Positions 3,455-60,267 of a DNA stretch of 64,000 nt are shown here, piece by piece. The translations under genes were made by a program, and so were the position numbers. The first letter of the stretch is position 1; each line of letters starts with the position of its first letter. The DNA comes from a bacterium (lineage in GTDB: Archaea; Thermoplasmatota; E2; JACPAO01; JAHFTW01). Below the pieces are notes generated by a model, which made no database searches, was not told the origin of the DNA, and saw nothing but the letters and a program-made list of their open reading frames with translations. The stretch covers positions 520,556 to 584,555 of the forward strand of contig JAZJZE010000009.1 of assembly GCA_040390065.1 (NCBI GenBank). Reading direction: 5' to 3'.

Positions 3455-3808
3455 ATGGTGCGCAAGCGCCGCCCTGAACTCCAGACCGCCCTGCAGCGCC
3501 TTGGCGCCAAGCGCGTGGAAGCCGTGCTCGTGTCCCTTCTTGCCCAGGAAGGGGAACTGGGCACCAGGCAAATCGTCGAGACGAGCGGCCTGCGTCAACC
3601 CGAGGTCTCGGTCGGCATGCGCGACCTGCGGCGGCGCGGCTGGGTCGAGGCAGACGCCATCGCGGGCCACGGCAAGGGTCGGCCCATGCACCGCTACCAC
3701 CTCGCCGTCTCGCCGGCCGTGCTGAGGCGGCACTACGAAGAGCAGGGCAAACGCACGGTGGCCGACTTCGAGCAGGCGCTGCGCCTCGTACGCAAGTCAC
3801 TGTCCTGA
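3455..3808 (+). CDS. Winged helix-turn-helix transcriptional regulator
   Basis: Within ORF 3386..3808. ATG 3455 is preferred because an AAAAATAG box (3425-3432) lies about 26 nt upstream. LVSLLAQEGELGTRQIVETSGLRQPEVSVGMRDLRRRGWV is a wHTH core. Confidence 0.7.
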   Translation: MVRKRRPELQTALQRLGAKRVEAVLVSLLAQEGELGTRQIVETSGLRQPEVSVGMRDLRRRGWVEADAIAGHGKGRPMHRYHLAVSPAVLRRHYEEQGKRTVADFEQALRLVRKSLS

Positions 3809-3813
3809 TTCCT

Positions 3814-4494
3814 TCACGCCGTGAGGGTGCGCACGCCACCCGGCTCCGCGACGTAGACTGCACTGCACAAGCCAAGAAACAGGCCGCACGTGACGACACC
3901 TGGGAACGTCTCGAGCTGCACTTCGAGGCGCTCCGGGTCATCGATTCGCGGCCACTTGGCATCGAGGATCGGGTTGCCGTTGTCGGTCAGGATCGTCTGG
4001 CCGGTGGCGTCGCGCCGCAGACGGACGGCCGCGCCCAGTTCCTCCAGGTGCATCTGGACAGGGCGCTTGCCGAAGTCCAGGACCTCCACCGGCAGCGCGA
4101 ACGTGGAGCCGAGATGCTCGACGCGTTTCGAAGGGTCGGCGACGACGACCATCTTGCGGCTGACGCGGGCCACGACCTTCTCGCGGCTGAGCGCACCGCC
4201 GCCGCCCTTGATCAGCCGCAGCCGCGGGTCGAACTCGTCCGCGCCGTCGATGGTCAGGTCGACGCGTGGCGTCTCGTCGAGCGTCGTGAGGCGGATGCCA
4301 AGCGAACGAGCCAGGGCCTCGGATTGGCGGCTCGTCGGGATGCCCACGAAATCGAGGCCCTGCTTGGCGCGGCGGCCGAGCGCCTCGATGGTGAACTTGA
4401 CCGTCGAGCCCGTCCCGAGGCCGACCACCATTCCGGGGCGCACGAGATCCGCTGCGGCCTCGCCGGCTTGGCGTTTGAGGGCGTCCTTGTCCAC
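3814..4494 (-). CDS. rpiA: Ribose-5-phosphate isomerase A
   Basis: Blocks GMVVGLGTGSTV, FVGIPTSRQSE, DLTIDGADEFD and LIKGGGGALSREK. GTG 4494 gives the canonical ~226 aa. ATG 4563 would collide with the divergent start at 4562. Confidence 0.9.
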   Translation of the reverse strand: MDKDALKRQAGEAAADLVRPGMVVGLGTGSTVKFTIEALGRRAKQGLDFVGIPTSRQSEALARSLGIRLTTLDETPRVDLTIDGADEFDPRLRLIKGGGGALSREKVVARVSRKMVVVADPSKRVEHLGSTFALPVEVLDFGKRPVQMHLEELGAAVRLRRDATGQTILTDNGNPILDAKWPRIDDPERLEVQLETFPGVVTCGLFLGLCSAVYVAEPGGVRTLTA

Positions 4495-12768: not shown

Positions 12769-13366
12769 TCCAGTCGCGCAGCAGGTCCATCTGCTGGATG
12801 ACGGACATCCACCCGTCGTCGCCTTGACCGCAATTGAGCCGCGCCATGCGGTCCCCGGCACGGACGATGACCTCGCCGCAGTCGGCGATGCCGACGGGCT
12901 TTGGGTCCTGCGCGCGGGCAAGGGCGGCGTCGATGGCGCGCCATGCGGCATCGCGGTCGCTGGCCGAAAGGGTGGCCGTGCGCACCTCGACGATGCGGAC
13001 CCCATCCGGGCCTCCGGCCGCCCCGTAGATGGTGCCGTCCGAGAACAGGGGCTCGACGATGGGTCGCCACTGTGACAGGTTCTGCGGGATGATGACGGCC
13101 GACTCCGACGCGCCGTTCCCGTTCATGCGGATCTGGTAGCCGACGTACAGCACGTGGCCGTCGCGGTCCAGGCCGACGTACGGCAGCGTCGGGCCGTAGC
13201 CGTCCGGGCCGACGGGGATGAACCCATACGTCCGGCCCTCCTCGACGGCGGGGCCGCCCCACGCCGACCAGGCACCCGCTGCGGCGCCGGGCGTGACGGG
13301 CGTGGTCGAGCCGCAGCCGGCAAGAAGCGTCCCGATTGCGACAATGGTGAGGAGCGAAATGCGCAT
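12749..13366 (-). CDS. Hypothetical lipoprotein
   Basis: Within ORF 12749..13567. ATG 13366 gives MRISLLTIVAIGTLLAGCGST (signal plus lipobox). Confidence 0.65.
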   Translation of the reverse strand: MRISLLTIVAIGTLLAGCGSTTPVTPGAAAGAWSAWGGPAVEEGRTYGFIPVGPDGYGPTLPYVGLDRDGHVLYVGYQIRMNGNGASESAVIIPQNLSQWRPIVEPLFSDGTIYGAAGGPDGVRIVEVRTATLSASDRDAAWRAIDAALARAQDPKPVGIADCGEVIVRAGDRMARLNCGQGDDGWMSVIQQMDLLRDWIKPRPG

Positions 13367-13424
13367 CGACTGGGATGGATGCGCCGGGGCCATGAACGTC
13401 GCGGTTTTGTTGGGGACGTGCCGA

Positions 13425-13766
13425 CTACGCGAGGCGGCTGACGAGTTCCTTGCGGGCCGCCTCGAAGAGGCGTTCCGCCTGGCCGGCTTGGTCCGCCGTC
13501 GGCATTGCCCCGCCCTTGGCTCCCTGCTCCATGGCCTTGCAGAGGGCGGCAAGCTCCAAAGCACCAAATGTCGCGGCCGTCGACTTGAGGGTGTGGTAGC
13601 TGCGCTGCGCCGTCACGATGTCCTTCATGCCGATGGCGGCGCGACCCTCCGCCAACTGCTTCGGGCCCTCTTCAAGGAACGCCTGGATCAGCTCCTTGAC
13701 GACTTCGCGGTCACCACCCATGTCGTCCATGAGCACTCGGATCGCGCCCTCGTCAATTGCCGCCAC
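13425..13766 (-). CDS. Histidine phosphotransfer (HPt) domain protein
   Basis: ORF 13425..13877. SYHTLKSTAATFGALELAALCKAME is the HPt His-containing helix motif (HxxKS..FGA). GTG 13766 is preferred because it removes the overlap with the divergent gene. ATG 13877 is the alternative. Confidence 0.7.
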   Translation of the reverse strand: MAAIDEGAIRVLMDDMGGDREVVKELIQAFLEEGPKQLAEGRAAIGMKDIVTAQRSYHTLKSTAATFGALELAALCKAMEQGAKGGAMPTADQAGQAERLFEAARKELVSRLA

Positions 13767-47709: not shown

Positions 47710-47886
47710 ATGACGAACGCCCTCATGCGGTATTGCGGCACCTGCTCCGAGTACACGCTGAAGGAGGCCTGCCCGCGCTGCGGCGGCAAGACGGCGCAGA
47801 AGACGCCGGCCAAGTTCAGTCCCGAGGACCATTACGGCGAGTACCGACGCAAGCTCAAGAAATTGGATGCGTCCGAGAAGGCGTAG
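47710..47886 (+). CDS. nop10: H/ACA RNP protein Nop10
   Basis: Within ORF 47602..47886. ATG 47710 lies 1 nt after the aIF2-alpha stop. MRYCGTCSEYTLKEACPRCGGKT...PAKFSPEDHYGEYRR. Confidence 0.92.
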   Translation: MTNALMRYCGTCSEYTLKEACPRCGGKTAQKTPAKFSPEDHYGEYRRKLKKLDASEKA

Positions 47887-47898
47887 GGCATCGGTCCA

Positions 47899-48319
47899 TC
47901 GAAACCAACCAACTTGCGGCCACGTCAACCTCCGACGGCGGCGACGCGCACGAGGTGGCCGCTTGCTTGAGTTTGGGCGGCCTGGAAAAACAGTGAACCC
48001 CATGAAACGGCAGGCGACAGGACATCGGTTTCCCTGGGTTCGGGTGGTGCACTATTTTCCGCGGCCTCCCACACTCAGCGACGCCCCGCAAGCAAGATGA
48101 ATCCCAGCCCCCCCGGCGGCCCCCGCGCGCTCGCTACGCATCGCGCACTGGCCTCGCCCTCGCACGCCCGCGCTGCGCTGCGGGCTGCTCGCCCCGACCG
48201 GGGGCCCGCTTCGCCTTTCCTCCATTCCCTCAAGGCGTCGGCGCCGTCGGAGGACGACGGGAATGGCTCGGTGGCTTGGACAAGCAGGAATCAGTCCAAT
48301 CCGTGCAATCCGTGGTTCG
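47899..48319. repeat. Left copy of long inverted repeat (IR-L)
   Basis: Reverse complement of 54268..54736. Identical blocks include 48063-48085 = rc 54550-54572 (23 nt), 48243-48270 = rc 54327-54354 (28 nt) and 48088-48106 = rc 54529-54547. The centre is diverged and carries indels. Confidence 0.85.
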
Positions 48320-48331
48320 CGTGGGCGACGG

Positions 48332-49288
48332 CTAGTGCGCCATGCGTGCCAACTTTTCCGCCTTCGTTGGCTGGTGCACGTGCGTGATGAGGTGCGTCCA
48401 TGCGAGGAGCCGCACGAGCCATGCGCCGGTGTCGACTTGCCACCATTTCATGCCGATGTAGGCGGCGTTGGGGAAGGCGTGGTGGTTGTTGTGCCAGCCT
48501 TCGCCCCAGCCGAAGATGGCGACGATGGGGTTGTTGGCGCCGCGGTCGTTCGTCTTGAACGGGCGGCGGCCCGACATGTGGCCGATGGAGTTGACGCTCC
48601 ACGTCGTGTGGTGCATGAGGCCGACGCGGATGAGGCCGCCCCAGACGAAGCAGTCGAAGGCGCCGGCAAGCGTTCCGTAGGCGAGGTAGCCGATGATGGC
48701 GGGCAGCACAAGAGAGAATGTGGTCCAGAAGACCCAGGTACGTGTGAAGAACGCGACCACCTTGTCCTGCATGAGCTTCTCGTAGGCGAGTCCGCCGTAG
48801 ACCATGCGGTCCTTGAGCATCCATCCCATGTGTGCGTGCCAGAAGCCTTCCAGTGGGCTGTGGGGGTCGCCGGGCCGGTCGGCCTTGGCGTGGTGGCGCA
48901 GGTGCGTTGCCGCCCAACCGGCTGGCGGGCCTTCGAGGGCCATCGTGCCGGCCATGAGGAGTCCGATCTTCGCGGGGGTCTTGGCGGTAAAGGCGCGGTG
49001 GGTGAGCATGCGGTGGAAGCCGACGCTGACGCCGAGGCCGGTCAGGAGCCAGCCGCCGATGAGGAGGCCAATCTCGAGCCAGCCGACGCCATGGCCCCAG
49101 AGGCGCCACCCGGCGTAGCCGAGGGCCAGCAGGGGGAGGAAGACGATGACCAGGATGAGGAGCTTGCCCCACCACGGGTCGTGGCCGAAGGGGAACGGGT
49201 CCTGGCCCTTGTGTTCGCCTTCGTGGGCCGTCTGGTCCCACTCCTGTTGTTCGGGGTCTTGGGCGTGCGCTTGGTTCGACATGGGCAT
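48332..49288 (-). CDS. Membrane acyl-CoA/acyl-lipid delta-9-type fatty acid desaturase
   Basis: ORF of 318 aa. Three His boxes: HRMLTH, HLRHHAKAD and HNNHHAFP. TM hairpins are present. Confidence 0.88.
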   Translation of the reverse strand: MPMSNQAHAQDPEQQEWDQTAHEGEHKGQDPFPFGHDPWWGKLLILVIVFLPLLALGYAGWRLWGHGVGWLEIGLLIGGWLLTGLGVSVGFHRMLTHRAFTAKTPAKIGLLMAGTMALEGPPAGWAATHLRHHAKADRPGDPHSPLEGFWHAHMGWMLKDRMVYGGLAYEKLMQDKVVAFFTRTWVFWTTFSLVLPAIIGYLAYGTLAGAFDCFVWGGLIRVGLMHHTTWSVNSIGHMSGRRPFKTNDRGANNPIVAIFGWGEGWHNNHHAFPNAAYIGMKWWQVDTGAWLVRLLAWTHLITHVHQPTKAEKLARMAH

Positions 49289-52448: not shown

Positions 52449-54107
52449 TCACTCGCGGTTGCCCTTGAAGCCCTCGCTCCAGAACACCATGACGAGGATC
52501 CATGCGACCAGGATGGCTCCGGCGCCGAAGAGGAATTGGCCGACGCGCGCCGACGGCGCCGCCGACGAGTAGACGAGGGCGAGGCCGAGGACCAGCGCGG
52601 CGGCCATGATCGTGAACCCGGTCTTGAGGATACCGCGGCCTTGCGCTGACTTGATGCCCTCGAGGCCCGCGACCTCGACGCGCGTCGTGAGTTCGTTGCG
52701 CTCGATCTTGCGCAGTACCGTGTTGAGGGTGTGCGGCAACGTCCGGCCGAACTTGAGAAGCTCTGTCAGCGCCTCCTGCACCATCTCCTTCTGCGCGCCC
52801 GGGCTGGAGATGTTCTTCCAGGCGACGTCGGCCACGAACGGGTCGAGGACCTCCACGAGCTCGAAGTCGGGGTCGAGGGTTCGGCAGATGCCCTCGAACT
52901 GGAACAGCGCCCGCGTGATGAGCGCGAAGTCCGGGGGCAGGAGCATGCGGTGGCTGCGCGCCAGGCCCACGATGAGGTCCATGAGGACCGGGTCGGCCAC
53001 CGAGACCTGCTCCCGGTCGATGTAGTCCATGATGCGCTCGACGTCGGCGCGCAACCGCTTGGAATCGACTTCCGCCCGCTGGTCGCAAAGGTCGAGGATG
53101 GCTTCGACGGTCCCTTCCACGTGGCCGCCGCCCAACGCCGTGATGAGTTGCAAGATCGTCTTCGCGCGGCGCTCCGAGACGATGCCGACGGCGCCGAAAT
53201 CGAGGAAGGCGACGACGTTCCCGGGCAGGATGAGGATGTTGCCCGGCGACGGGTCCGCGTGGAAGACGCGGTCCACGAAGATCTGCTTCGCCATGGATTC
53301 CGTGAGAATGCGCGCCACACTCGGCCCGTCGACGCGCGACAGGGCAAGGGGCCCGGTGAGCTTCACGCCGTCCATGAACTCCATCACGAGGACCCGCTTG
53401 CTGCACAGCTCAGGGACGACTTCCGGGATGCGGACCTTGCTGTTGCCACGACAGTTGTCCGCAATGCGCTGCGTGTTGCGCATCTCGTAGCGGTAGTCCA
53501 GTTCGCGCTCCATCATGAGGCGCAGCTCCTCCAGGTGGTCGGATGGTTGCCAGACCCGCGAGCCGGCGAAGGTCTTCTCCACGAAGGTGACCAGCCTCCG
53601 GAGAATGCGGAAGTCGGCCTCCATCTCCTCCTCGATGTCCGAGTGCTGCACCTTCACCGCGACGCGGCGTCCGTCCCGGAGTGTCGCCTCGTGGACTTGC
53701 CCGATGGACGCGCTCGCGATGGGAACGGGGTTGAATGCGGCGAAAACCTCGCTCGCGTCGCGGCCCAACTCGGCGCGGATGATGCGGGCCACCTCGTTTG
53801 GCGACGTGGCCGGCGCCTGGTCGTACAGCTTACGGAACTCCTCGACGTACTCCTTCTCCAGGAGATCGGGGCGCGTGGCCAGCAGTTGGCCGAGCTTGAT
53901 GAAGGTCGGGCCAAGTTGCTCGAGGAGCTTCCGGGTCCGCACCGGCGCGGGCTCCAGGTTCTCGGGCTGCGCCTTGCCGCGAAGGACCGTCGACAGGAGT
54001 CCCCACGCGTTGTTGCGAATCAGGATGGTGAGGATCTCGTTGAAGCGCGAACGACGGCGCCGCACGGCGAGGGCTTCCGCGACGGCTTCGGGCACGGTGT
54101 GGGCCAT
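52449..54107 (-). CDS. ubiB: ABC1/UbiB-family atypical protein kinase
   Basis: Within ORF 52449..54326. ATG 54107 gives MAHTVPEAV. LGPTFIKLGQLLATRPDLL, ASASIGQVHEA, VAVKVQH, HADPSPGNI and two C-terminal TM helices. Confidence 0.9.
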   Translation of the reverse strand: MAHTVPEAVAEALAVRRRRSRFNEILTILIRNNAWGLLSTVLRGKAQPENLEPAPVRTRKLLEQLGPTFIKLGQLLATRPDLLEKEYVEEFRKLYDQAPATSPNEVARIIRAELGRDASEVFAAFNPVPIASASIGQVHEATLRDGRRVAVKVQHSDIEEEMEADFRILRRLVTFVEKTFAGSRVWQPSDHLEELRLMMERELDYRYEMRNTQRIADNCRGNSKVRIPEVVPELCSKRVLVMEFMDGVKLTGPLALSRVDGPSVARILTESMAKQIFVDRVFHADPSPGNILILPGNVVAFLDFGAVGIVSERRAKTILQLITALGGGHVEGTVEAILDLCDQRAEVDSKRLRADVERIMDYIDREQVSVADPVLMDLIVGLARSHRMLLPPDFALITRALFQFEGICRTLDPDFELVEVLDPFVADVAWKNISSPGAQKEMVQEALTELLKFGRTLPHTLNTVLRKIERNELTTRVEVAGLEGIKSAQGRGILKTGFTIMAAALVLGLALVYSSAAPSARVGQFLFGAGAILVAWILVMVFWSEGFKGNRE

Positions 54108-54267
54108 GGCCTGCGTCGGTTTAAGAAAGAAGGGGGCGGCGCCCGCCCCGACTTCTCCACAGATTTCGCGGAATCGTCGGTCTGCATTCGGGCGAGCTCT
54201 TGCACGTCCTGCACGCACTCCGACTGGGAGCAGATTCCGCCGATTGACGTTCAGGCCTGCTCCGGTT

Positions 54268-54736
54268 CGAACCACCGAACGCACAGAACATACCGAACCG
54301 CCGGGGAACCTACGTGTCCAAGCCAACGAGCCATTCCCGTCGTCCTCCGACGGCGGCGACGTCGTGAAGGAATGGCAGGAGACTGGGGCGACGCCCGGTC
54401 AACCGACGCAACGGACGCAACCGACACCGACGAGCCCCCGGCCGGGGCGAGCGACTGCGCCGCGAAGCGCGCAGAGCGAGGGCGTGGCAAGCCGCGAGGC
54501 GAAGCCGCGGCGAGGGCCGCCGGGGGCCTGGGATTCATCTTGCTTGCAGGGCGTCGCTGAGTGTGGGAGGCCTCGGAAAACAGTGAACCACCCGAAACCA
54601 GGGAAACCCATGTCGTGTCTCCTGCCCTTTCATGTGGTTCACTGTTTTTCCAGGCTGCCCACACCCCACTATGCGGCCACCTCGTGCAAGTCGCCGGCGC
54701 CGCAGGATGATGTGGCCGGGAGGTGGTTGGTTTCGA
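54268..54736. repeat. Right copy of long inverted repeat (IR-R)
   Basis: See IR-L. It contains an internal palindrome, GGAAAACAGTGAACCAC (54575-54591) against GTGGTTCACTGTTTTTCC (54634-54651). Confidence 0.85.
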
Positions 54737-54789
54737 CCGACGGCTTCGGCGTCCCAACGCCCAGCCGGCCGAGGCTCCCCCTCCACCCG

Positions 54790-55720
54790 AAGCAAGTCTT
54801 ATCCAACCGGCTGCAAAGGAAGCACAGGAAGCGTGCAGCCGGGGCCGCACCCGTAGCGAGCTTTCCGGAAAATGCCCTTAATCCCCCGCCCATTCAGGGT
54901 GTTTGCCCGCGCAAGCGGGTAACGGTCATCGCGGTGGGAGGGGCTGGAAACGGCCTCCCCGACGCCCGAGGGTTCGGAGCAATCCGGATCCGCGGGCGCG
55001 CCGGGACCGGCGGGGTGCACTTCGGTGTTCTCCCCCGTCGGCGACGGCACTCGGCGTCCCGCAAGGGACGTCGCGGCACTGCGATGGATGGGCCGCCTTC
55101 GGGTGGTCCTTCGCCGTGCACCAACCGCACCATCGTCCTCCCTCGTGGAAGGCGGTGATGGGATCCAGTCGGGAAACCGGCCGGAGAACGACGCGCTTTG
55201 CAAGAAGCGTGATGCGGTGGATCGTCTGGCATTCGGGTCAGGCTGTTCTTCTGGCCGCAAGGTCGGGCCCCGCGGACTTGTTCCGTGGACGCCTCGGGTC
55301 ATCATCCGGGAAGATGCATGGGACTCTGCATCCGCCCCACACCAAACCAGGCATGCGTCTGAAGAGTTGCAGGCTTTCGGCAACGACGCGCTGCACGGCA
55401 AACCGCAAGGCAAGCCGACGGCATGACCTGATCCAAACGGGATTGCCCTTCGGGGCAAGCGGCCCGCCACTTCGGAAACGAAGAAGGGCCTAGGCGACCG
55501 AGTACGGTCCCGGAATGGATGCCGCCGACCCTCCGGGGAAGGCGACCGCGCATCGCAAGGTTCGCGGGGAACGGCAACCCGCAAGGGTGGCCGTGGCGTG
55601 GCGCCGCAAGGCGTCGGAACTGGCTTCGGCCAGACTGGCAGGGGGTCCGGGCAAGGTCAAGCCCGATCCGGGAAACCGCAAGGCGACCCGGGTCTCCGCT
55701 TGCGTGGGCAACCTCTTCTC
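54790..55720 (+). ncRNA. Candidate large structured RNA (~930 nt) of unrecognised class
   Basis: No credible ORF in any frame. At least 13 local hairpins are capped by GCAA (8), UUCG (4) or GAAA (1) loops when read on the plus strand. Nine stem positions are G-U on plus and would be C-A on minus. Boundaries are approximate. It ends in the pyrimidine run CTCTTCTCTCT. Confidence 0.5.
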
Positions 55721-55721
55721 T

Positions 55722-56963
55722 CTAGGCCGCGGCCATTCGGTAGACCGCGCCGCCGTGGTCGACGACGTAGATGTCGCGCTGGGCGTCTTCGCCGAACGAG
55801 CTGACCTGCAGAGCCGTTTCGAGCACGACGCGCGGCGTCCAGGTCGTGCCGGCTTTCGTCAAGGCCCAGATTGTTCCCGAGCAGTAGTCGGCGTACAGAT
55901 ACGCGCCGGCGAGGGCCGGCACCGTCGAACCACGGTACACGTACCCGCCCGTGATAGAGCAGCGCCCGCCGTCGTGACTGTACTCGGCGACCGGCAGGAC
56001 CGCGCTCGACGCGTCGACGTCGTCGCGGAATGGATGCGCGCCCTCGAATGCGTTCCAGCCGTAGTTGGTGCCGCCGCGGCCGGGCTGTTCCAGGTCGACT
56101 TCCTCCCATTGGTTCTGGCCGACGTCGCCAATCCACAAGTCGCCGGTCTGCGCGTCGAAGCTGAAGCGCCAAGGATTGCGCATGCCGTAATCCCAGATCT
56201 CACCGCGGCCCCCGCCGTTGGCAAACGGATTGTCGCTGGGGATACGCGGCACGGTTCCCGCATGGGCGTCGCCCGGTGGCCCGATGTCAATGCGCAGGAT
56301 TTTTCCCAGAAGCGTGTCGAGGTCCTGGCCGTTGCCTTGCGGGTCGCCCCCGGATCCGCCGTCGCCCATGCCGACGTAGAGCATGCCGTCCGGTCCAAAG
56401 GCGACCATGCCGCCGTTGTGGTTGGCGTACGGCTGCGCGATGGACAGGAGTGTGCGCGTCTTCACGGGGCCGACCGTCCCGCCAGCGAGCCCCCCGACCA
56501 TCTGGTACTCGACCACCTGAGTGTCGCCGCGCAAGTCGGTGTAGTCCACGACGAAGCGAGCATCGCCGGTTGCGAAACGTGGATGGAAGGCAAGACCCAG
56601 CAGACCCTGCTCGGCGCCGCCGCTCACTTGTCCCCGCAAGTCCAGGAAGTGCTGCGTCGCGCCGGGCGTGGCACGCGGCATCGAGACGACGAGGCCGTCC
56701 TGCTGGACGATGTAGAGCGTCCCGGACCCGGGGGCTTCCGTGACGAAGAGGGGCTGCGAGAGTCCGTCGATGATTTGGACGAGCTTCATGACGGGGCCGC
56801 CGCCTGGGAGGGACGACGTGGGAGTGGACGAGGACGCCGCGCCGCCGCTCGACCCGTACGGGCCGCCGTTGCATCCCGCGAGGGCGACCGCTGCCAGGAC
56901 GACGAGGACGCGCACGACGGCGCAGCGATCGACGCGGGTTTGGCCCTTGCGGCTCGGCCCCAC
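55722..56963 (-). CDS. PQQ-dependent sugar (glucose/sorbosone) dehydrogenase-like beta-propeller lipoprotein
   Basis: ORF of 413 aa. Lipobox LAGCNGG, then GLLGLAFHP, NHNGGMVAFGPDGMLYVGMGDGG, RNPWRFSFD and WIGDVGQNQWEE. GTG 56915 is an alternative start. The annotated start lies inside a duplicated coxII 3' fragment. Confidence 0.85.
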   Translation of the reverse strand: MGPSRKGQTRVDRCAVVRVLVVLAAVALAGCNGGPYGSSGGAASSSTPTSSLPGGGPVMKLVQIIDGLSQPLFVTEAPGSGTLYIVQQDGLVVSMPRATPGATQHFLDLRGQVSGGAEQGLLGLAFHPRFATGDARFVVDYTDLRGDTQVVEYQMVGGLAGGTVGPVKTRTLLSIAQPYANHNGGMVAFGPDGMLYVGMGDGGSGGDPQGNGQDLDTLLGKILRIDIGPPGDAHAGTVPRIPSDNPFANGGGRGEIWDYGMRNPWRFSFDAQTGDLWIGDVGQNQWEEVDLEQPGRGGTNYGWNAFEGAHPFRDDVDASSAVLPVAEYSHDGGRCSITGGYVYRGSTVPALAGAYLYADYCSGTIWALTKAGTTWTPRVVLETALQVSSFGEDAQRDIYVVDHGGAVYRMAAA

Positions 56964-57025
56964 AGCCCTACGAAATCGTCACGGTGCCATGCATTCCCGC
57001 ATCGAAGTGCCCGGTGATGTTGCAC
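56952..57025. repeat. 74-bp direct repeat, copy 1 (copy 2 is 57101-57174)
   Basis: The copies differ at 2 positions and are offset by 149 bp. Copy 2 is the genuine 3' end of coxB plus 16 nt of flank. Confidence 0.9.
56968..57025 (-). pseudogene. Orphan duplicate of the last 18 codons plus stop of coxB
   Basis: It translates to CNITGHFDAGMHGTVTIS*, identical to the CoxII C-terminus, with no upstream coxB sequence. Confidence 0.75.
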
Positions 57026-57116
57026 GCACGAGGGGGGCTGCCGCTGCGGCGTCCGCCGCAGCTCCGCCCCCTTCGAACCCCCCGCGTGGGGCCTCGCCGC
57101 GCTCGGCCCCACAGCC

Positions 57117-58493
57117 CTACGAAATCGTCACGGTGCCGTGCATGCCCGCATCGAAGTGCCCGGTGATGTTGCACCACATCTCCCAGTTGCCCTTCATGTC
57201 CGCCGTGGGCACGAAGAGGAATGAGCCGGTCGAGCCGCCCGCAATCGTCGCCGAGCTGGCAAGCACGTTGCCGCCGTGGGTGCCGATGTACAGGTTGTGC
57301 GGAATCGTGTGCACGTCCTTCAGGGTCACGAGGTACGTCTTGCCGACCGTGAAGTCAACGTGGTCCGGGATGAGACGGAACTCGCCCAGGCGGACCTCGG
57401 TGAGTTCCGCGTGGACGATGTTGAACGTGACGTGCGCCACATGGCCCGCGGACTGGACGCCTAGGACGGGCGAGCCCGATGGTGGAACGTCGACCGCGAA
57501 GAACGCTTGGCCACCTGCAGGCACGCTGTTTGGACCGGCACCTGCCAGAGTAGCCGACGGGAACGGCTGGTCGTTCCACGTGATGTTGGCCGGCTGGGCC
57601 GTCGGGTTCGTCACGTTCAGGATGATGCGCGCGCCACTCACCACCGTCTGGTCGCCCGTCAAGGAAAGGCCGGTAGCCGTGATCGTGGCGTCGTAGTCCA
57701 TGACGACGGAGGCGGCGGGCTCCATGGCCTGCAGCTGGTGGTGCAGAAGCCACATGTCGTACATGGGACGCGGCACCGACTTGATGGCGGCGTGCATGTA
57801 GGCGTGGCCCGGATTGAGGCACATCTTGTTGCACTGCACCAGGTAGTCGCCCTCGGGGAGGCTTACCGTTTGATCGTTGTACTTGTTCGCCCCAAGCGGG
57901 TTGGCGTCGACGAACATGACGTAGGCGCGGTTGGCGTCCAGCACTTGCCAGGCGTGGATGACGTCTGCCGACGTGATGTTGAATCGGATGGGCTCGTCCC
58001 GCGGCACCCAGAACGTGTTGGCCGCAGACACCGGGCCGCCCGTGAGGTCGGCCGGGGATTCGACGCGCACGTTGTGGCCGTAGTCCGCCTCCCAGTTCCA
58101 TTGGCTGGCCGTGATGCGGATCTCGATGTGCACGTCCTTCGGGTCGATGCCGTGGTCGAGCTGGACGAGGCCGCCATAGGCCGCGTAGCCGATCCACAGC
58201 ACCATGATGAGAGGGATGACGACCCAGGTGATCTCTGCATTCAAGTTGTGGCGCTCCTTCTCATGCGTCGCGCGGCCGTGGCCCGACCCTTCGCGGAACC
58301 GCACGATGACGACGACGAGCCACACGAAGACGATGGTGAAGACGATCGTGCCAAGCAGCGCGATGGTGTTGTACAGGCCCTCGACGAGCTGGCCGCGCGA
58401 GGTCAAGGCATGGGGCATGCCGAAGCCGGCCGACGCCGGCGCCGCCAGGAAGGCCACAAGGAGACTCAGGAGGGCGGGGAAAAGCTTGCGCAT
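57117..58493 (-). CDS. coxB: Cytochrome oxidase subunit II (CuA) fused to about 200 aa of extra cupredoxin-like domains ending in a type-1 copper site
   Basis: ORF of 458 aa. CuA ligands: H180 and C221-x3-C225-x4-H230-x2-M233 (VIHAW...QCNKMCLNPGHAYM). The C-terminal site is HTIPHN...WCNITGHFDAGMHG (C-x4-H-x4-M). Confidence 0.88.
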   Translation of the reverse strand: MRKLFPALLSLLVAFLAAPASAGFGMPHALTSRGQLVEGLYNTIALLGTIVFTIVFVWLVVVIVRFREGSGHGRATHEKERHNLNAEITWVVIPLIMVLWIGYAAYGGLVQLDHGIDPKDVHIEIRITASQWNWEADYGHNVRVESPADLTGGPVSAANTFWVPRDEPIRFNITSADVIHAWQVLDANRAYVMFVDANPLGANKYNDQTVSLPEGDYLVQCNKMCLNPGHAYMHAAIKSVPRPMYDMWLLHHQLQAMEPAASVVMDYDATITATGLSLTGDQTVVSGARIILNVTNPTAQPANITWNDQPFPSATLAGAGPNSVPAGGQAFFAVDVPPSGSPVLGVQSAGHVAHVTFNIVHAELTEVRLGEFRLIPDHVDFTVGKTYLVTLKDVHTIPHNLYIGTHGGNVLASSATIAGGSTGSFLFVPTADMKGNWEMWCNITGHFDAGMHGTVTIS

Positions 58494-58596
58494 GGCGCTT
58501 CGGGCGGCGCACGGGAGGGGGGTCCAAAAGCGTATGGTTCACTGCGCGCACGCCTGCGGCACTGCCGGGGAGTCAACACCGTTTTGAAGGTGTCCT

Positions 58597-60267
58597 GTGT
58601 CGCGGCACCCGACCATGTCCGCGGCCCAGTTCGTCCTCGGTGAATCCAGCCACCCCCGCAAGGGCCTGAAGCGCTGGCTGACGACCACGGACCACAAGGA
58701 AATCGGCATCATGTACCTCTGGGCCGGTTTCATCTTCTTCATCCTGGGCGGCATCGCGGCTCTCCTCATGCGCCTCGAGCTCTACCAGCCGGGGCTGCAG
58801 TACGTGACGGGCCAGCAGTTCAACGAGCTGTTCTCGCTGCACGGCACGACGATGGTGTTCTTGTGGATCATGCCGGCCCTGGCGGGGCTTGGCAACTACT
58901 TCGTGCCCATCATGATCAAGGCCAAGGACATGGCCTTCCCGCGCGTCAACGCCCTGTCGTTCTGGCTCATCCCGCCCGCCGGCCTGCTGCTGTACATCCC
59001 GCTGGTCCTCAAGGGCGTGGACTTCGTCAACGTCACGTGGGTCGGCTACCCGCCGCTCTCGACGGACCTCCCCGGCGTCGGCCTCGACATGTGGCTCTTC
59101 GCCCTCATCCTTCTCGGCATGGCCTCGACGATGGGCTCCGTCAACTTCCTGGTCACCATCTTCAAGATGCGCGGCCCCGGCGTGACACTGCACAACATGC
59201 CGCTCTTCGTCTGGGCGCAACTGGCGACATCGGTCCTGCTCGTCTTCTCGCTTCCCGTCGTCACCGTCGCCTTCGGCATGCTCCTCATGGACCGCGACTT
59301 CGGCACGCACTTCTTCAGCGGTGTTGCCTCGGGCGCCGAGCCGATCCTCTACCAGCACCTGTTCTGGTTCTTCGGCCACCCCGAAGTGTATGTTCTCATC
59401 ATTCCGCTGATGGGTGTGGTGAACGAGGTCATCCCGAAGTTCAGTCGCCGCCCCGTCTTCGGCTACACGTCGATGGCCTACGCCATGCTGGGCATCGCCA
59501 TCGTCGGATTCCTCGTCTGGGCCCACCACATGTTCACGACCGGCATCAACCCGACCGTGCGCGCCGTCTTCATGTTCAACACAATGCTGGTCGGCGTGCC
59601 GACAGGCATCAAGGTGTTCAACTGGCTCACGACCATGTGGGGCGGCCAGATTAGCTTGCGCGCTCCCATGAAGTACTGCCTGGGTTTCATCTGGCTGTTC
59701 GTGATCGGCGGCATCACGGGCGTCATGCTCGGCGCGATTCCCGTCGACTACGCCCTGCACGACTCGTACTTCGTCGTGGCGCACTTCCACTACACCATGG
59801 TGGGCGGCGCCGTCTTCGGCATCTTCGCGGGAATCTACTACTGGTTCCCCATCCTCACGAACGGCCGGATGTACAACGAGCGCATGGCCAATTGGCACTT
59901 CTGGCTCATGTTCATCGGCTTCAACATGACATTCTTCCCGCAGTTCCTGCTCGGCCTCAACGGCATGCCGCGGCGTGTCGTGAACTACGACGATGTCGGC
60001 GACATGGTTCCGCTCAACCAGATCAGCACCATCGGGGCGTTCATGATCGGCCTCTCGGTCCTGATCTTCATCGTGAACTACTTCTACAGCATGGCGAAGA
60101 ACGTCCGCGTCACCACGGATCCGTGGGGGGGCGCGCGCCACATCGAGTGGAAACTGTGGGAGGAGGGCCGCGTCGTTCTAGGCCAGGGCCTCATCACGGA
60201 CCACGAGCCTGAGCCGCTTGCAGTGCAAGAGGCTCGCAAGGTCGCCCGCTTGGAGGCGCCGCTATGA
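58597..60267 (+). CDS. coxA: Haem-copper oxidase subunit I
   Basis: ORF of 556 aa with TTTDHKEIGIMYL, WFFGHPEVYVLIIP, VWAHHMF and 12 TM segments. Confidence 0.96.
   Translation: MSRHPTMSAAQFVLGESSHPRKGLKRWLTTTDHKEIGIMYLWAGFIFFILGGIAALLMRLELYQPGLQYVTGQQFNELFSLHGTTMVFLWIMPALAGLGNYFVPIMIKAKDMAFPRVNALSFWLIPPAGLLLYIPLVLKGVDFVNVTWVGYPPLSTDLPGVGLDMWLFALILLGMASTMGSVNFLVTIFKMRGPGVTLHNMPLFVWAQLATSVLLVFSLPVVTVAFGMLLMDRDFGTHFFSGVASGAEPILYQHLFWFFGHPEVYVLIIPLMGVVNEVIPKFSRRPVFGYTSMAYAMLGIAIVGFLVWAHHMFTTGINPTVRAVFMFNTMLVGVPTGIKVFNWLTTMWGGQISLRAPMKYCLGFIWLFVIGGITGVMLGAIPVDYALHDSYFVVAHFHYTMVGGAVFGIFAGIYYWFPILTNGRMYNERMANWHFWLMFIGFNMTFFPQFLLGLNGMPRRVVNYDDVGDMVPLNQISTIGAFMIGLSVLIFIVNYFYSMAKNVRVTTDPWGGARHIEWKLWEEGRVVLGQGLITDHEPEPLAVQEARKVARLEAPL

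Follow-up and report, generated by a model that had tools for sequence, protein, structure and literature searches.

A candidate new class of large structured RNA in an uncultured archaeon of the Thermoplasmatota

To our knowledge, apart from ribosomal RNA (rRNA), ribonuclease P (RNase P) RNA and signal recognition particle (SRP) RNA, no class of large, intricately folded RNA has been described in archaea. We analyzed a 64-kb stretch of DNA (here called the window) from an uncultured archaeon, in which a UbiB gene and a gene of the glucose/sorbosone dehydrogenase family (GSDH; "PQQ dehydrogenase" in a preliminary description of the same DNA) are separated by 1.6 kb. Comparison with related genomes shows that the right-hand part of this gap, positions 54789-55715, specifies on its plus strand a conserved, structured, non-coding RNA with a common fold of about 40 helices. 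We therefore regard this archaeal RNA as credibly representing a new class of large structured RNA, one that is well supported as a structure but putative as a transcript and in its function.

Evidence for this conclusion comes from compensatory change. Four distinct versions of the RNA were obtained, from the window and from three homologous loci designated L085 (identical to the copy in L086), L087 and L091, and these could be aligned over their full length with pairwise nucleotide identities of 67-76%. Consensus folds were computed with RNAalifold and compared with a slid control, in which the 3' partners of all pairs were shifted by 1-3 columns. The three-sequence consensus comprised 287 pairs in about 40 helices, with 92.7% of the cells paired versus 36-43% in the slid control, and double changes were found at 54 pairs, versus 4-11 in the slid control and 24.3±3.5 after column shuffling (none of 500 shuffles reached 54). 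In the four-sequence consensus, which retained 235 pairs, 95% of the cells were paired, and 50 pairs showed compensatory changes versus 3-16 in the slid control. Moreover, at least seven loops remain of the GNRA type while their sequence changes (GAAA/GAGA, GCAA/GCGA and GCAA/GAAA), and a UUCG hairpin at 55443-55458 is swapped in L091 for a GCAA hairpin on a different stem. The preliminary description had called the region a candidate structured RNA that should show conservation and covariation in relatives, and both are abundant.

Hairpin content and folding energy point in the same direction and also identify the sense strand. When we scanned for GNRA or UUCG loops with four or more contiguous closing pairs, we found 15 capped hairpins on the plus strand between 54903 and 55633 and two more farther left in the 1.6-kb gap, and none on the minus strand of 54000-55800. 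The plus strand of the rest of the window holds 39 such hairpins in 62 kb (0.63 per kb) and the minus strand of the window holds 35 in 64 kb (about 0.55 per kb), so that the high density reported previously is far above the chance background of about 0.6 per kb. Of the 13 hairpins listed in the preliminary description, 11 were recovered at, or within a few bases of, their coordinates; the two others (55547-55566 and 55668-55691) were skipped by our strict scan because their stems are interrupted, and the latter is a conserved helix in the alignment. Capped hairpins that it had overlooked include 54940-54957 (GAAA), 54970-54991 (GCAA) and 55168-55181 (GAAA). The plus strand of 54790-55720 was folded by RNAfold with an energy of -486.6 kcal/mol (z-score -6.46; none of 20 shuffles equaled it), versus a z-score of -0.27 for the minus strand, and in sliding windows it is only the plus strand, between about 54850 and 55650, that has negative fold z-scores. 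The four-sequence consensus contains 99 G-U cells versus 16 A-C cells, including nine pairs that are G-U in all four sequences, and this excess fixes the plus strand as the RNA sense, as had been proposed.

The conserved block was shown, by several tests on the aligned versions, not to code for protein. Long open frames do exist on both strands, as expected at 66% guanine plus cytosine (GC), for example an open reading frame (ORF) of 261 amino acids (aa) on the minus strand; none of these frames has a Pfam match, however, and none is conserved as a frame among the homologues. Lengths divisible by three account for just 1 of 19 and 2 of 24 indels, and substitutions are spread flatly over the codon phases. 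Protein-like conservation of a frame, which would have spoken for a gene, was thus not found, and the region has no relatives in protein databases apart from antisense artefacts.

Those artefacts provided the route to the homologues. The 261-aa antisense open frame (54799-55584) was searched against 1.84 billion representative proteins and led to two "hypothetical proteins", P0121 (L085 615-1298) and P0122 (L087 173-997), whose contigs (L085/L086 and L087, respectively) carry the RNA on the strand opposite to the called ORF; P0121 and P0122 are antisense translations of the RNA and not genes. The fourth version (L091 14115-14985) came to light when the contig from a close relative was lengthened to 10 kb. 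Called ORFs of 258 and 223 aa at L091 13405-14890 overlap the RNA or a repeat region and are probably artefacts as well. Homology among the four versions spans window positions 54789 to about 55715, which matches almost exactly the interval of 54790-55720 given in the preliminary description, and the DNA upstream is different in every genome. Of 681 nucleotides (nt) of neighboring intergenic DNA, no more than about 100 can be aligned between the window and L091, whereas the RNA aligns from end to end. In the genomes carrying the RNA, the aspartyl-tRNA synthetase (AspRS) is about 91% identical to that of the window where this could be measured.

The location of the RNA is shared in part among these genomes. 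In L091, and in the window after an inversion described below is undone, the RNA is placed between a fatty-acid desaturase gene and the convergent GSDH gene. The upstream gene is again a desaturase in L085, where the RNA begins 44 nt after the desaturase stop codon, and a CPBP-family gene in L087, where the RNA begins 58 nt after the stop codon; it is co-directional with the upstream gene in both. The RNA occurs once per 64-kb window. In L085, a stretch of about 370 nt (1-376) lies 3' of the RNA on the RNA-sense strand, without a GSDH gene. Among its strong hairpins are a 13-bp stem (CCAAAAUGGG.../...CCCAUUUUGG) with a U-run after it and several with UUCG and GAAG loops, and the stretch may represent either a second RNA or a 3' extension specific to this lineage.

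Beyond these genomes, the RNA was not detected in any other examined locus. The syntenic site of L089, whose UbiB is 70% identical to that of the window, holds a PaaK-like gene instead. This 497-aa ORF, which has no Pfam match, was considered as a diverged homologue and rejected, inasmuch as it contains few capped hairpins, folds with similar energy on its two strands, carries an adenylate-forming-enzyme motif and matches PaaK weakly. No RNA adjoins UbiB in the UbiB-anchored loci L001-L004, L089, L090 and L092. A GSDH-anchored scan of 185k species genomes yielded 80 loci (best identity, 54%), none with the RNA, and GSDH is too widely exchanged to be used as an anchor. A six-frame concatenated translation searched against 5.8 billion proteins returned nothing, candidates probably having been swamped by low-complexity words. 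In metagenomes, frame-corrected pseudo-protein patterns gave 600 false stretches and no confirmed one, and a 21-base conserved DNA pattern gave no match, missing even the Joint Genome Institute (JGI) contig of L085, which the collection evidently does not hold. Five conserved patterns scanned against viral contigs (IMG/VR) gave a single chance match (L088), and blastn of phage and plasmid collections gave no match. Only two clusters of spurious ORFs derived from the RNA exist among the 1.84 billion representatives. Because the RNA is missing in L089 and the other loci and has left so few ORF clusters, it is either young and lineage-specific or evolving too fast to be traced by sequence.

The ends of the RNA can be predicted from the sequence. 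The conserved block opens with GAAGCAAGyCTTATCC, and the homology of the four sequences begins exactly at GAAG despite the differing upstream DNA. This opening contains a BRE/TATA-like box (B recognition element and TATA; GAAGCAAGTCTTATCC, 54789-54804), and it is followed by a spacer of about 17 nt (54806-54822), which varies more than any other part of the 5' region; near-invariance returns at CACAGGAAGCG, from 54823. Because a box, a variable spacer and then invariant sequence is the pattern expected of a promoter, 54789-54822 on the plus strand was designated putative promoter P1, from which the RNA would be transcribed independently, with a start predicted near 54826 (about 54824-54828). 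The start codons of UbiB and AspRS in the same genome are each preceded, at a distance of 30 nt, by a CTTAA-type box. The conserved block contains a second TATA-like box, GCCCTTAATCCCC (54874-54886, plus strand), which closely resembles the AspRS promoter GCCCTTAAGCGCC and is found 30 nt before the helix that closes the RNA body, a spacing that is invariant in all four sequences; transcription from it would start at about 54905-54907, the first base of that helix. We favor the first box, which is somewhat the likelier of the two, the second being a reasonable but less probable choice.

The segment of 54789-54904 (116 nt) is the most conserved of the locus, being 86% identical between the window and L091, compared with 73-83% for the flanking coding genes and 67.6% for the RNA body. 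Helices predicted within it receive no support from compensatory change, and the segment is therefore constrained at the level of sequence. The highly conserved part downstream of the first promoter (54823-54904, plus strand) may be either an RNA leader or promoter DNA, that is, an upstream regulatory region. The segment also contains a tandem AGGAAGC ... AGGAAGC, both copies of which show the same G-to-A change in L085. At the other end, a pyrimidine-rich tract, AACCUCUUCUCU (55710-55721, plus strand), abuts the GSDH stop codon at 55722, and homology ends here; L091 has UCCUCUUCUUGUUUUCUCU at the matching place, just before its own GSDH stop codon. The tract is likely the 3' end of the RNA or a putative terminator. 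In both the window and L091, 11-17 nt separate the end of the RNA from the stop codon of GSDH, which is convergent with it. The predicted length of the RNA is thus about 810 nt if counted from 54905, or about 885 nt from about 54826.

The RNA body (all coordinates on the plus strand) is enclosed by a closing helix of 12-14 bp, in which 54905-54918 pairs with 55696-55709. This helix is kept in all four sequences through changes from G-C to G-U and from C-G to U-G, with no double change, and the sequences fit a local GCAA hairpin at 54905-54920 in its place just as well. Domain I (54927-55086) is enclosed by the long-range helix 54927-54936/55077-55086 and contains a GAAA hairpin (54937-54960; loop GAGA in L087), a variable arm (54963-55040) with compensatory changes at eight pairs, and a GCAA hairpin (55050-55075) with an invariant loop. 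The preliminary description had instead paired 55081-55087 with 55130-55136; that pairing is not kept in the homologues, in which 55077-55086 pairs as just stated and 55131-55157 forms a covarying hairpin of its own. Domains I and II are linked by a UUCG-capped hairpin (55087-55112), with double changes at 5 of its 11 pairs. In domain II (55114-55321), the helix 55114-55120/55315-55321 closes around seven helices. Helices H14-H20 show compensatory changes at 15 pairs, and loops vary within the GNRA family, as in the hairpins at 55164-55185 (GAAA/GCAA), 55192-55211 (GCAA/GCGA) and 55250-55267 (GCAA/GAAA).

Domain III (55322-55658) is closed by the helices 55322-55329/55651-55658 and 55334-55338/55642-55646. 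A three-way junction at 55348-55430, in which the joining strand CUGAAGAG is purine-rich and conserved, forms the core. With a covariance model of this part (R1, 55331-55461), every homologue reaches 139-157 bits and 55525-55636 reaches 18.7 bits; this latter score indicates that 55525-55636 is a diverged internal duplicate of the core, arising from an old duplication. A module also occurs three times, at 55395-55417, 55571-55593 and 55665-55694; in the last copy, an 8-bp stem leads through an A-rich internal loop to a 2-bp stem capped by GCAA. The stem of this copy is invariant in all four sequences, and the capping loop is GCAA in three and GAAA in L087. With the core duplicate and the triple module, the RNA seems to have grown by duplication. 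By inspection, no conserved kink-turn, 11-nt tetraloop receptor, bulge-helix-bulge or group II domain V was found.

The RNA was compared with known families by running cmscan with Rfam 15 on the whole window at gathering thresholds, and on 54000-55800, L085 and L087 at E ≤ 10. The whole-window scan gave no match, and the permissive scans returned only noise, namely microRNA-like matches on a long hairpin outside the RNA and a match of 50 nt to RNaseP-T at 55582-55631 (14 bits versus a gathering threshold of 60; E = 3.6). These scans detected none of the GOLLD, ROOL, OLE and HEARO models, and group I and II introns, RNase P (clan CL00002), SRP and rRNA gave no significant match, so that membership in any of these families is excluded. 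The absence of RNase P, SRP, group II and rRNA signatures noted previously therefore stands, as does the assignment to an unknown class; the proposed ranking with GOLLD, ROOL and HEARO is borne out in size and style, but not by a match to any of their models. A recombinase, reverse transcriptase, maturase, endonuclease or other nuclease gene, or any other conserved protein gene, accompanies the RNA at none of the examined loci; no conserved partner gene was found at L085, L087 and L091, and no TnpB/IscB-type nuclease gene, the neighbor expected of HEARO and IS605-family omega RNAs, at any of the four loci. Since domain V/VI (Rfam Intron_gpII) was not matched at E ≤ 10 and no reverse transcriptase gene is present, the group II intron test was likewise negative.

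We know of no other widespread large structured non-rRNA RNAs in archaea than RNase P and SRP RNA. The present RNA is like these in being a stand-alone gene with its own (here putative) promoter, a terminal helix that connects the 5' and 3' regions and GNRA loops, and unlike them in being two to three times larger, restricted, in the loci examined, to one small clade and devoid of their universal conserved regions. Among bacterial families, ROOL (rumen-originating, ornate, large) RNA is about 580 nt long, and OLE (ornate, large, extremophilic) RNA is confined to Bacillota and linked to partners such as OapA. The descriptive "ornate" category does fit our RNA, which is longer than 500 nt, has many covarying helices, is non-coding and has no match to rRNA, RNase P, SRP or introns; no comparable archaeal RNA is described in the literature that we searched. 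GOLLD forms RNA-only nanocages and is bacterial and borne by prophages or phages, often near tRNA islands (PMC12286853). The archaeal RNA shares with GOLLD a size of about 800 nt, a multi-domain build rich in stable hairpins, the lack of an associated protein gene and a patchy distribution; it differs from GOLLD in being archaeal and chromosomal, in lying among housekeeping genes and in having no sequence or structure match to it. No prophage context was seen either, the 64-kb window having no tRNA gene and the region no phage or plasmid match, nor any in IMG/VR other than the chance one. ROOL is thought to act as an RNA-only complex without an identified protein partner, and is phage-associated and rich in pseudoknots (PMC12286853); our RNA resembles it as a large ornate RNA for which no protein partner is identified, and differs from it in lacking a phage association, in having no established pseudoknot and in matching no ROOL model. 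OLE, of about 600 nt, has near-invariant stretches among covarying helices and contains a kink-turn (PMC9723947). Like OLE, the archaeal RNA is large, chromosomal and highly structured, with a near-invariant 5' leader and three-way junction among covarying helices; unlike OLE, it comes from Thermoplasmatota rather than Bacillota, matches no OLE model, is accompanied by no conserved partner gene and has no convincing kink-turn by inspection.

We consider it highly probable that the region encodes a stand-alone, plus-strand structured RNA of an undescribed class, for which a trans-acting architectural RNA is our preferred model; other explanations fare much less well. Its size, multi-domain build and terminal helix resemble those of large ribozymes, and a ribozyme or an ORF-less, mobile, intron-like element (a degenerate group I or II intron or a self-processing RNA) might have spread between loci, considering that the RNA lies co-directionally 44 nt (L085) and 58 nt (L087) after an upstream stop codon, as class C group II introns do, and that the upstream gene in L087 is a CPBP-family gene instead of the desaturase. 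This is improbable, however, given that no model matches at E ≤ 10, no domain-V-like hairpin was seen by inspection, no reverse transcriptase, maturase or endonuclease is nearby, and the RNA interrupts no gene. The order desaturase-RNA-GSDH is moreover common to the window and L091, and desaturase-RNA to L085, with one copy per 64 kb; because the location is common to the window (inversion undone) and L091 and partly to L085, inheritance looks vertical. The proximity of the RNA to its neighbors, namely 44 nt after the desaturase stop in L085 and 11-17 nt from the convergent GSDH stop in the window and L091, would also suit a cis-acting element, either a long desaturase 3' untranslated region (UTR) or an antisense or termination-control RNA for GSDH. 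We give this reading an equally small chance: the desaturase of the window is 6 kb away across the inversion and yet the RNA is intact, the upstream gene of L087 is a different one, no GSDH is present in the 376 nt downstream in L085, the conserved block starts with its own promoter-like box, and some 40 helices with conserved GNRA loops far exceed what a terminator or UTR needs.

It is still less likely that a divergent or expanded universal RNA (RNase P or SRP RNA) or an rRNA-derived fragment was missed by the Rfam models. No other RNase P or SRP gene is present in the window, the RNaseP-T match mentioned above falls within the RNA, and GUCCGGGC at 55645-55652 may resemble the P4 strand of the RNase P consensus. 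The RNaseP-T match is non-significant, though, falls where the RNA is least conserved and does not recur in the homologues, while the archaeal RNase P, SRP and rRNA models found nothing at E ≤ 10 in three loci; at 810-890 nt the RNA is two to three times the size of those RNAs, and had the RNA been universal, the searches with spurious ORFs and profiles would not have failed to find it in all other Thermoplasmatota. Finally, a cluster of DNA-level palindromic repeats (like repetitive extragenic palindromes, REP, or miniature inverted-repeat transposable elements, MITE) or a decayed protein gene, with no RNA at all, could be read into the 16-nt inverted termini (54903-54918/55696-55711), which resemble terminal inverted repeats, into the recurrence of short motifs such as CCGCAAGG and into the long open frames on both strands. 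Palindromes, however, fold alike on both strands, as that at 54561-54664 does, whereas the RNA region is strongly strand-asymmetric, its compensatory changes keep pairing including G-U, and no other copies exist in the window; a decayed gene is contradicted by the lack of a codon-phase signal, by frequent frameshifting indels and by the absence of Pfam or protein relatives other than antisense artefacts. This last explanation is effectively refuted.

The left half of the 1.6-kb gap lies outside the RNA; only the 930 nt on the right, in which the preliminary description had placed its hairpins, are the RNA, the left half being one arm of an inverted repeat. One copy of this repeat, of about 470 nt, is found at 54270-54745 and the other, in inverted orientation, at 47873-48339; they are 76% identical over about 440 nt. 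The 6-kb block of genes between them (desaturase, AspRS, a 215-aa protein and UbiB) is reversed in the window and in the P0006 contig relative to L001/L091, L003, L089 and L090, and it is only because of this inversion that UbiB adjoins the RNA in the window. L091 has an inverted-repeat pair of its own at the two matching places (3671-3990 and 13305-13691). Copies within one genome are 72-76% alike, whereas only about 100 nt can be aligned with their orthologues in the other genome, which suggests that the segment is invertible and has repeatedly undergone recombination or gene conversion. The first copy contains a long, near-perfect hairpin with 37-nt arms (54561-54597/54628-54664; z-score about -6 on both strands), which accounts for the spurious microRNA-family matches in Rfam. 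Because its counterpart in the second copy (about 47950-48080) has uncompensated changes, this hairpin seems to be a palindrome at the level of DNA and not a conserved RNA. A 70-aa ORF at 54399-54611 was considered as a small gene and rejected, as it is not conserved.

The genes surrounding the RNA, in addition to UbiB (52449-54107, minus strand) and GSDH (55722-56963, minus strand), include AspRS, the desaturase and cytochrome oxidase genes. The host was assigned to Thermoplasmatota in view of its nearest named UbiB relatives, which are Thermoplasmatota/Thermoplasmata metagenome-assembled genomes (MAGs), and archaeal eIF2-alpha and Nop10 genes are present in the window, in agreement with the archaeal host of the preliminary description. 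The UbiB of the window (P0001) is filed under the organism name "bacterium", and from these relatives and genes the domain label of the MAG appears to be wrong. Downstream, GSDH and COX2 with a C-terminal cupredoxin domain (both on the minus strand) are followed by COX1 and COX3 on the plus strand (55722-60267), and the order GSDH-COX2-COX1-COX3 is kept in L089 (17205-21641). Among 185k species genomes, the top matches of the GSDH protein reach no more than 54% identity and belong mostly to Chloroflexota, a hint of horizontal exchange.

According to our preferred model of a trans-acting architectural RNA, the RNA would be transcribed independently from its own BRE/TATA promoter at the 5' edge of the conserved block, and the closing helix of 12-14 bp would clamp the start of the RNA body to its 3' end. 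The three multi-helix domains would then pack together as the many conserved GNRA tetraloops dock into helices, either within one molecule or between copies. The product would be a compact, nuclease-resistant particle, acting in trans either as a ribonucleoprotein scaffold or as an RNA-only assembly, in the manner of OLE, ROOL and GOLLD (PMC12286853, PMC9723947). The 80-nt 5' leader, nearly invariant and with no supported pairing, is our first candidate for the site at which a partner, protein or nucleic acid, would be contacted in a sequence-specific way. We regard as doubtful, on the other hand, the bolder possibility of a first archaeal RNA-only or RNA-dominated self-assembling "ornate" particle, or of a new large ribozyme, in which the dozen GNRA loops, three modules and duplicated junction of an RNA of about 850 nt would build a multimer and the invariant 5' leader would serve as a functional or recognition arm.

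Several points weigh against the architectural RNA as we propose it. The four distinct sequences all belong to one genus-level clade; the consensus structure was derived from the same sequences in which covariation was counted, and the shuffle control ignores their relatedness, although the slid control, which is fairer, still leaves a 3- to 15-fold excess of compensatory pairs. The closing helix and several core helices are invariant and hence unsupported either way. The ends, promoter and expression of the RNA are predictions, and tertiary contacts, multimerization and protein partners are proposed purely by analogy. The RNA may also be young, dispensable and lineage-specific, considering that L089 does not have it and that only two spurious clusters exist.

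OLE, ROOL and GOLLD come from bacteria or phages, and recent work has shown that they form unprecedented RNA-only assemblies (PMC12286853). The RNA described here is, by analogy, a candidate archaeal counterpart of these large "ornate" bacterial RNAs, the value of which is limited by the narrow distribution seen so far, in four genomes of one clade. The antisense "hypothetical proteins" to which it has given rise in protein databases are a warning and, at the same time, handles for finding structured RNAs in metagenomes. An archaeal RNA of about 0.85 kb with about 40 helices would offer structural biologists a GC-rich and probably very stable new fold, and would bring the phenomenon of "ornate" RNA to the third domain of life.

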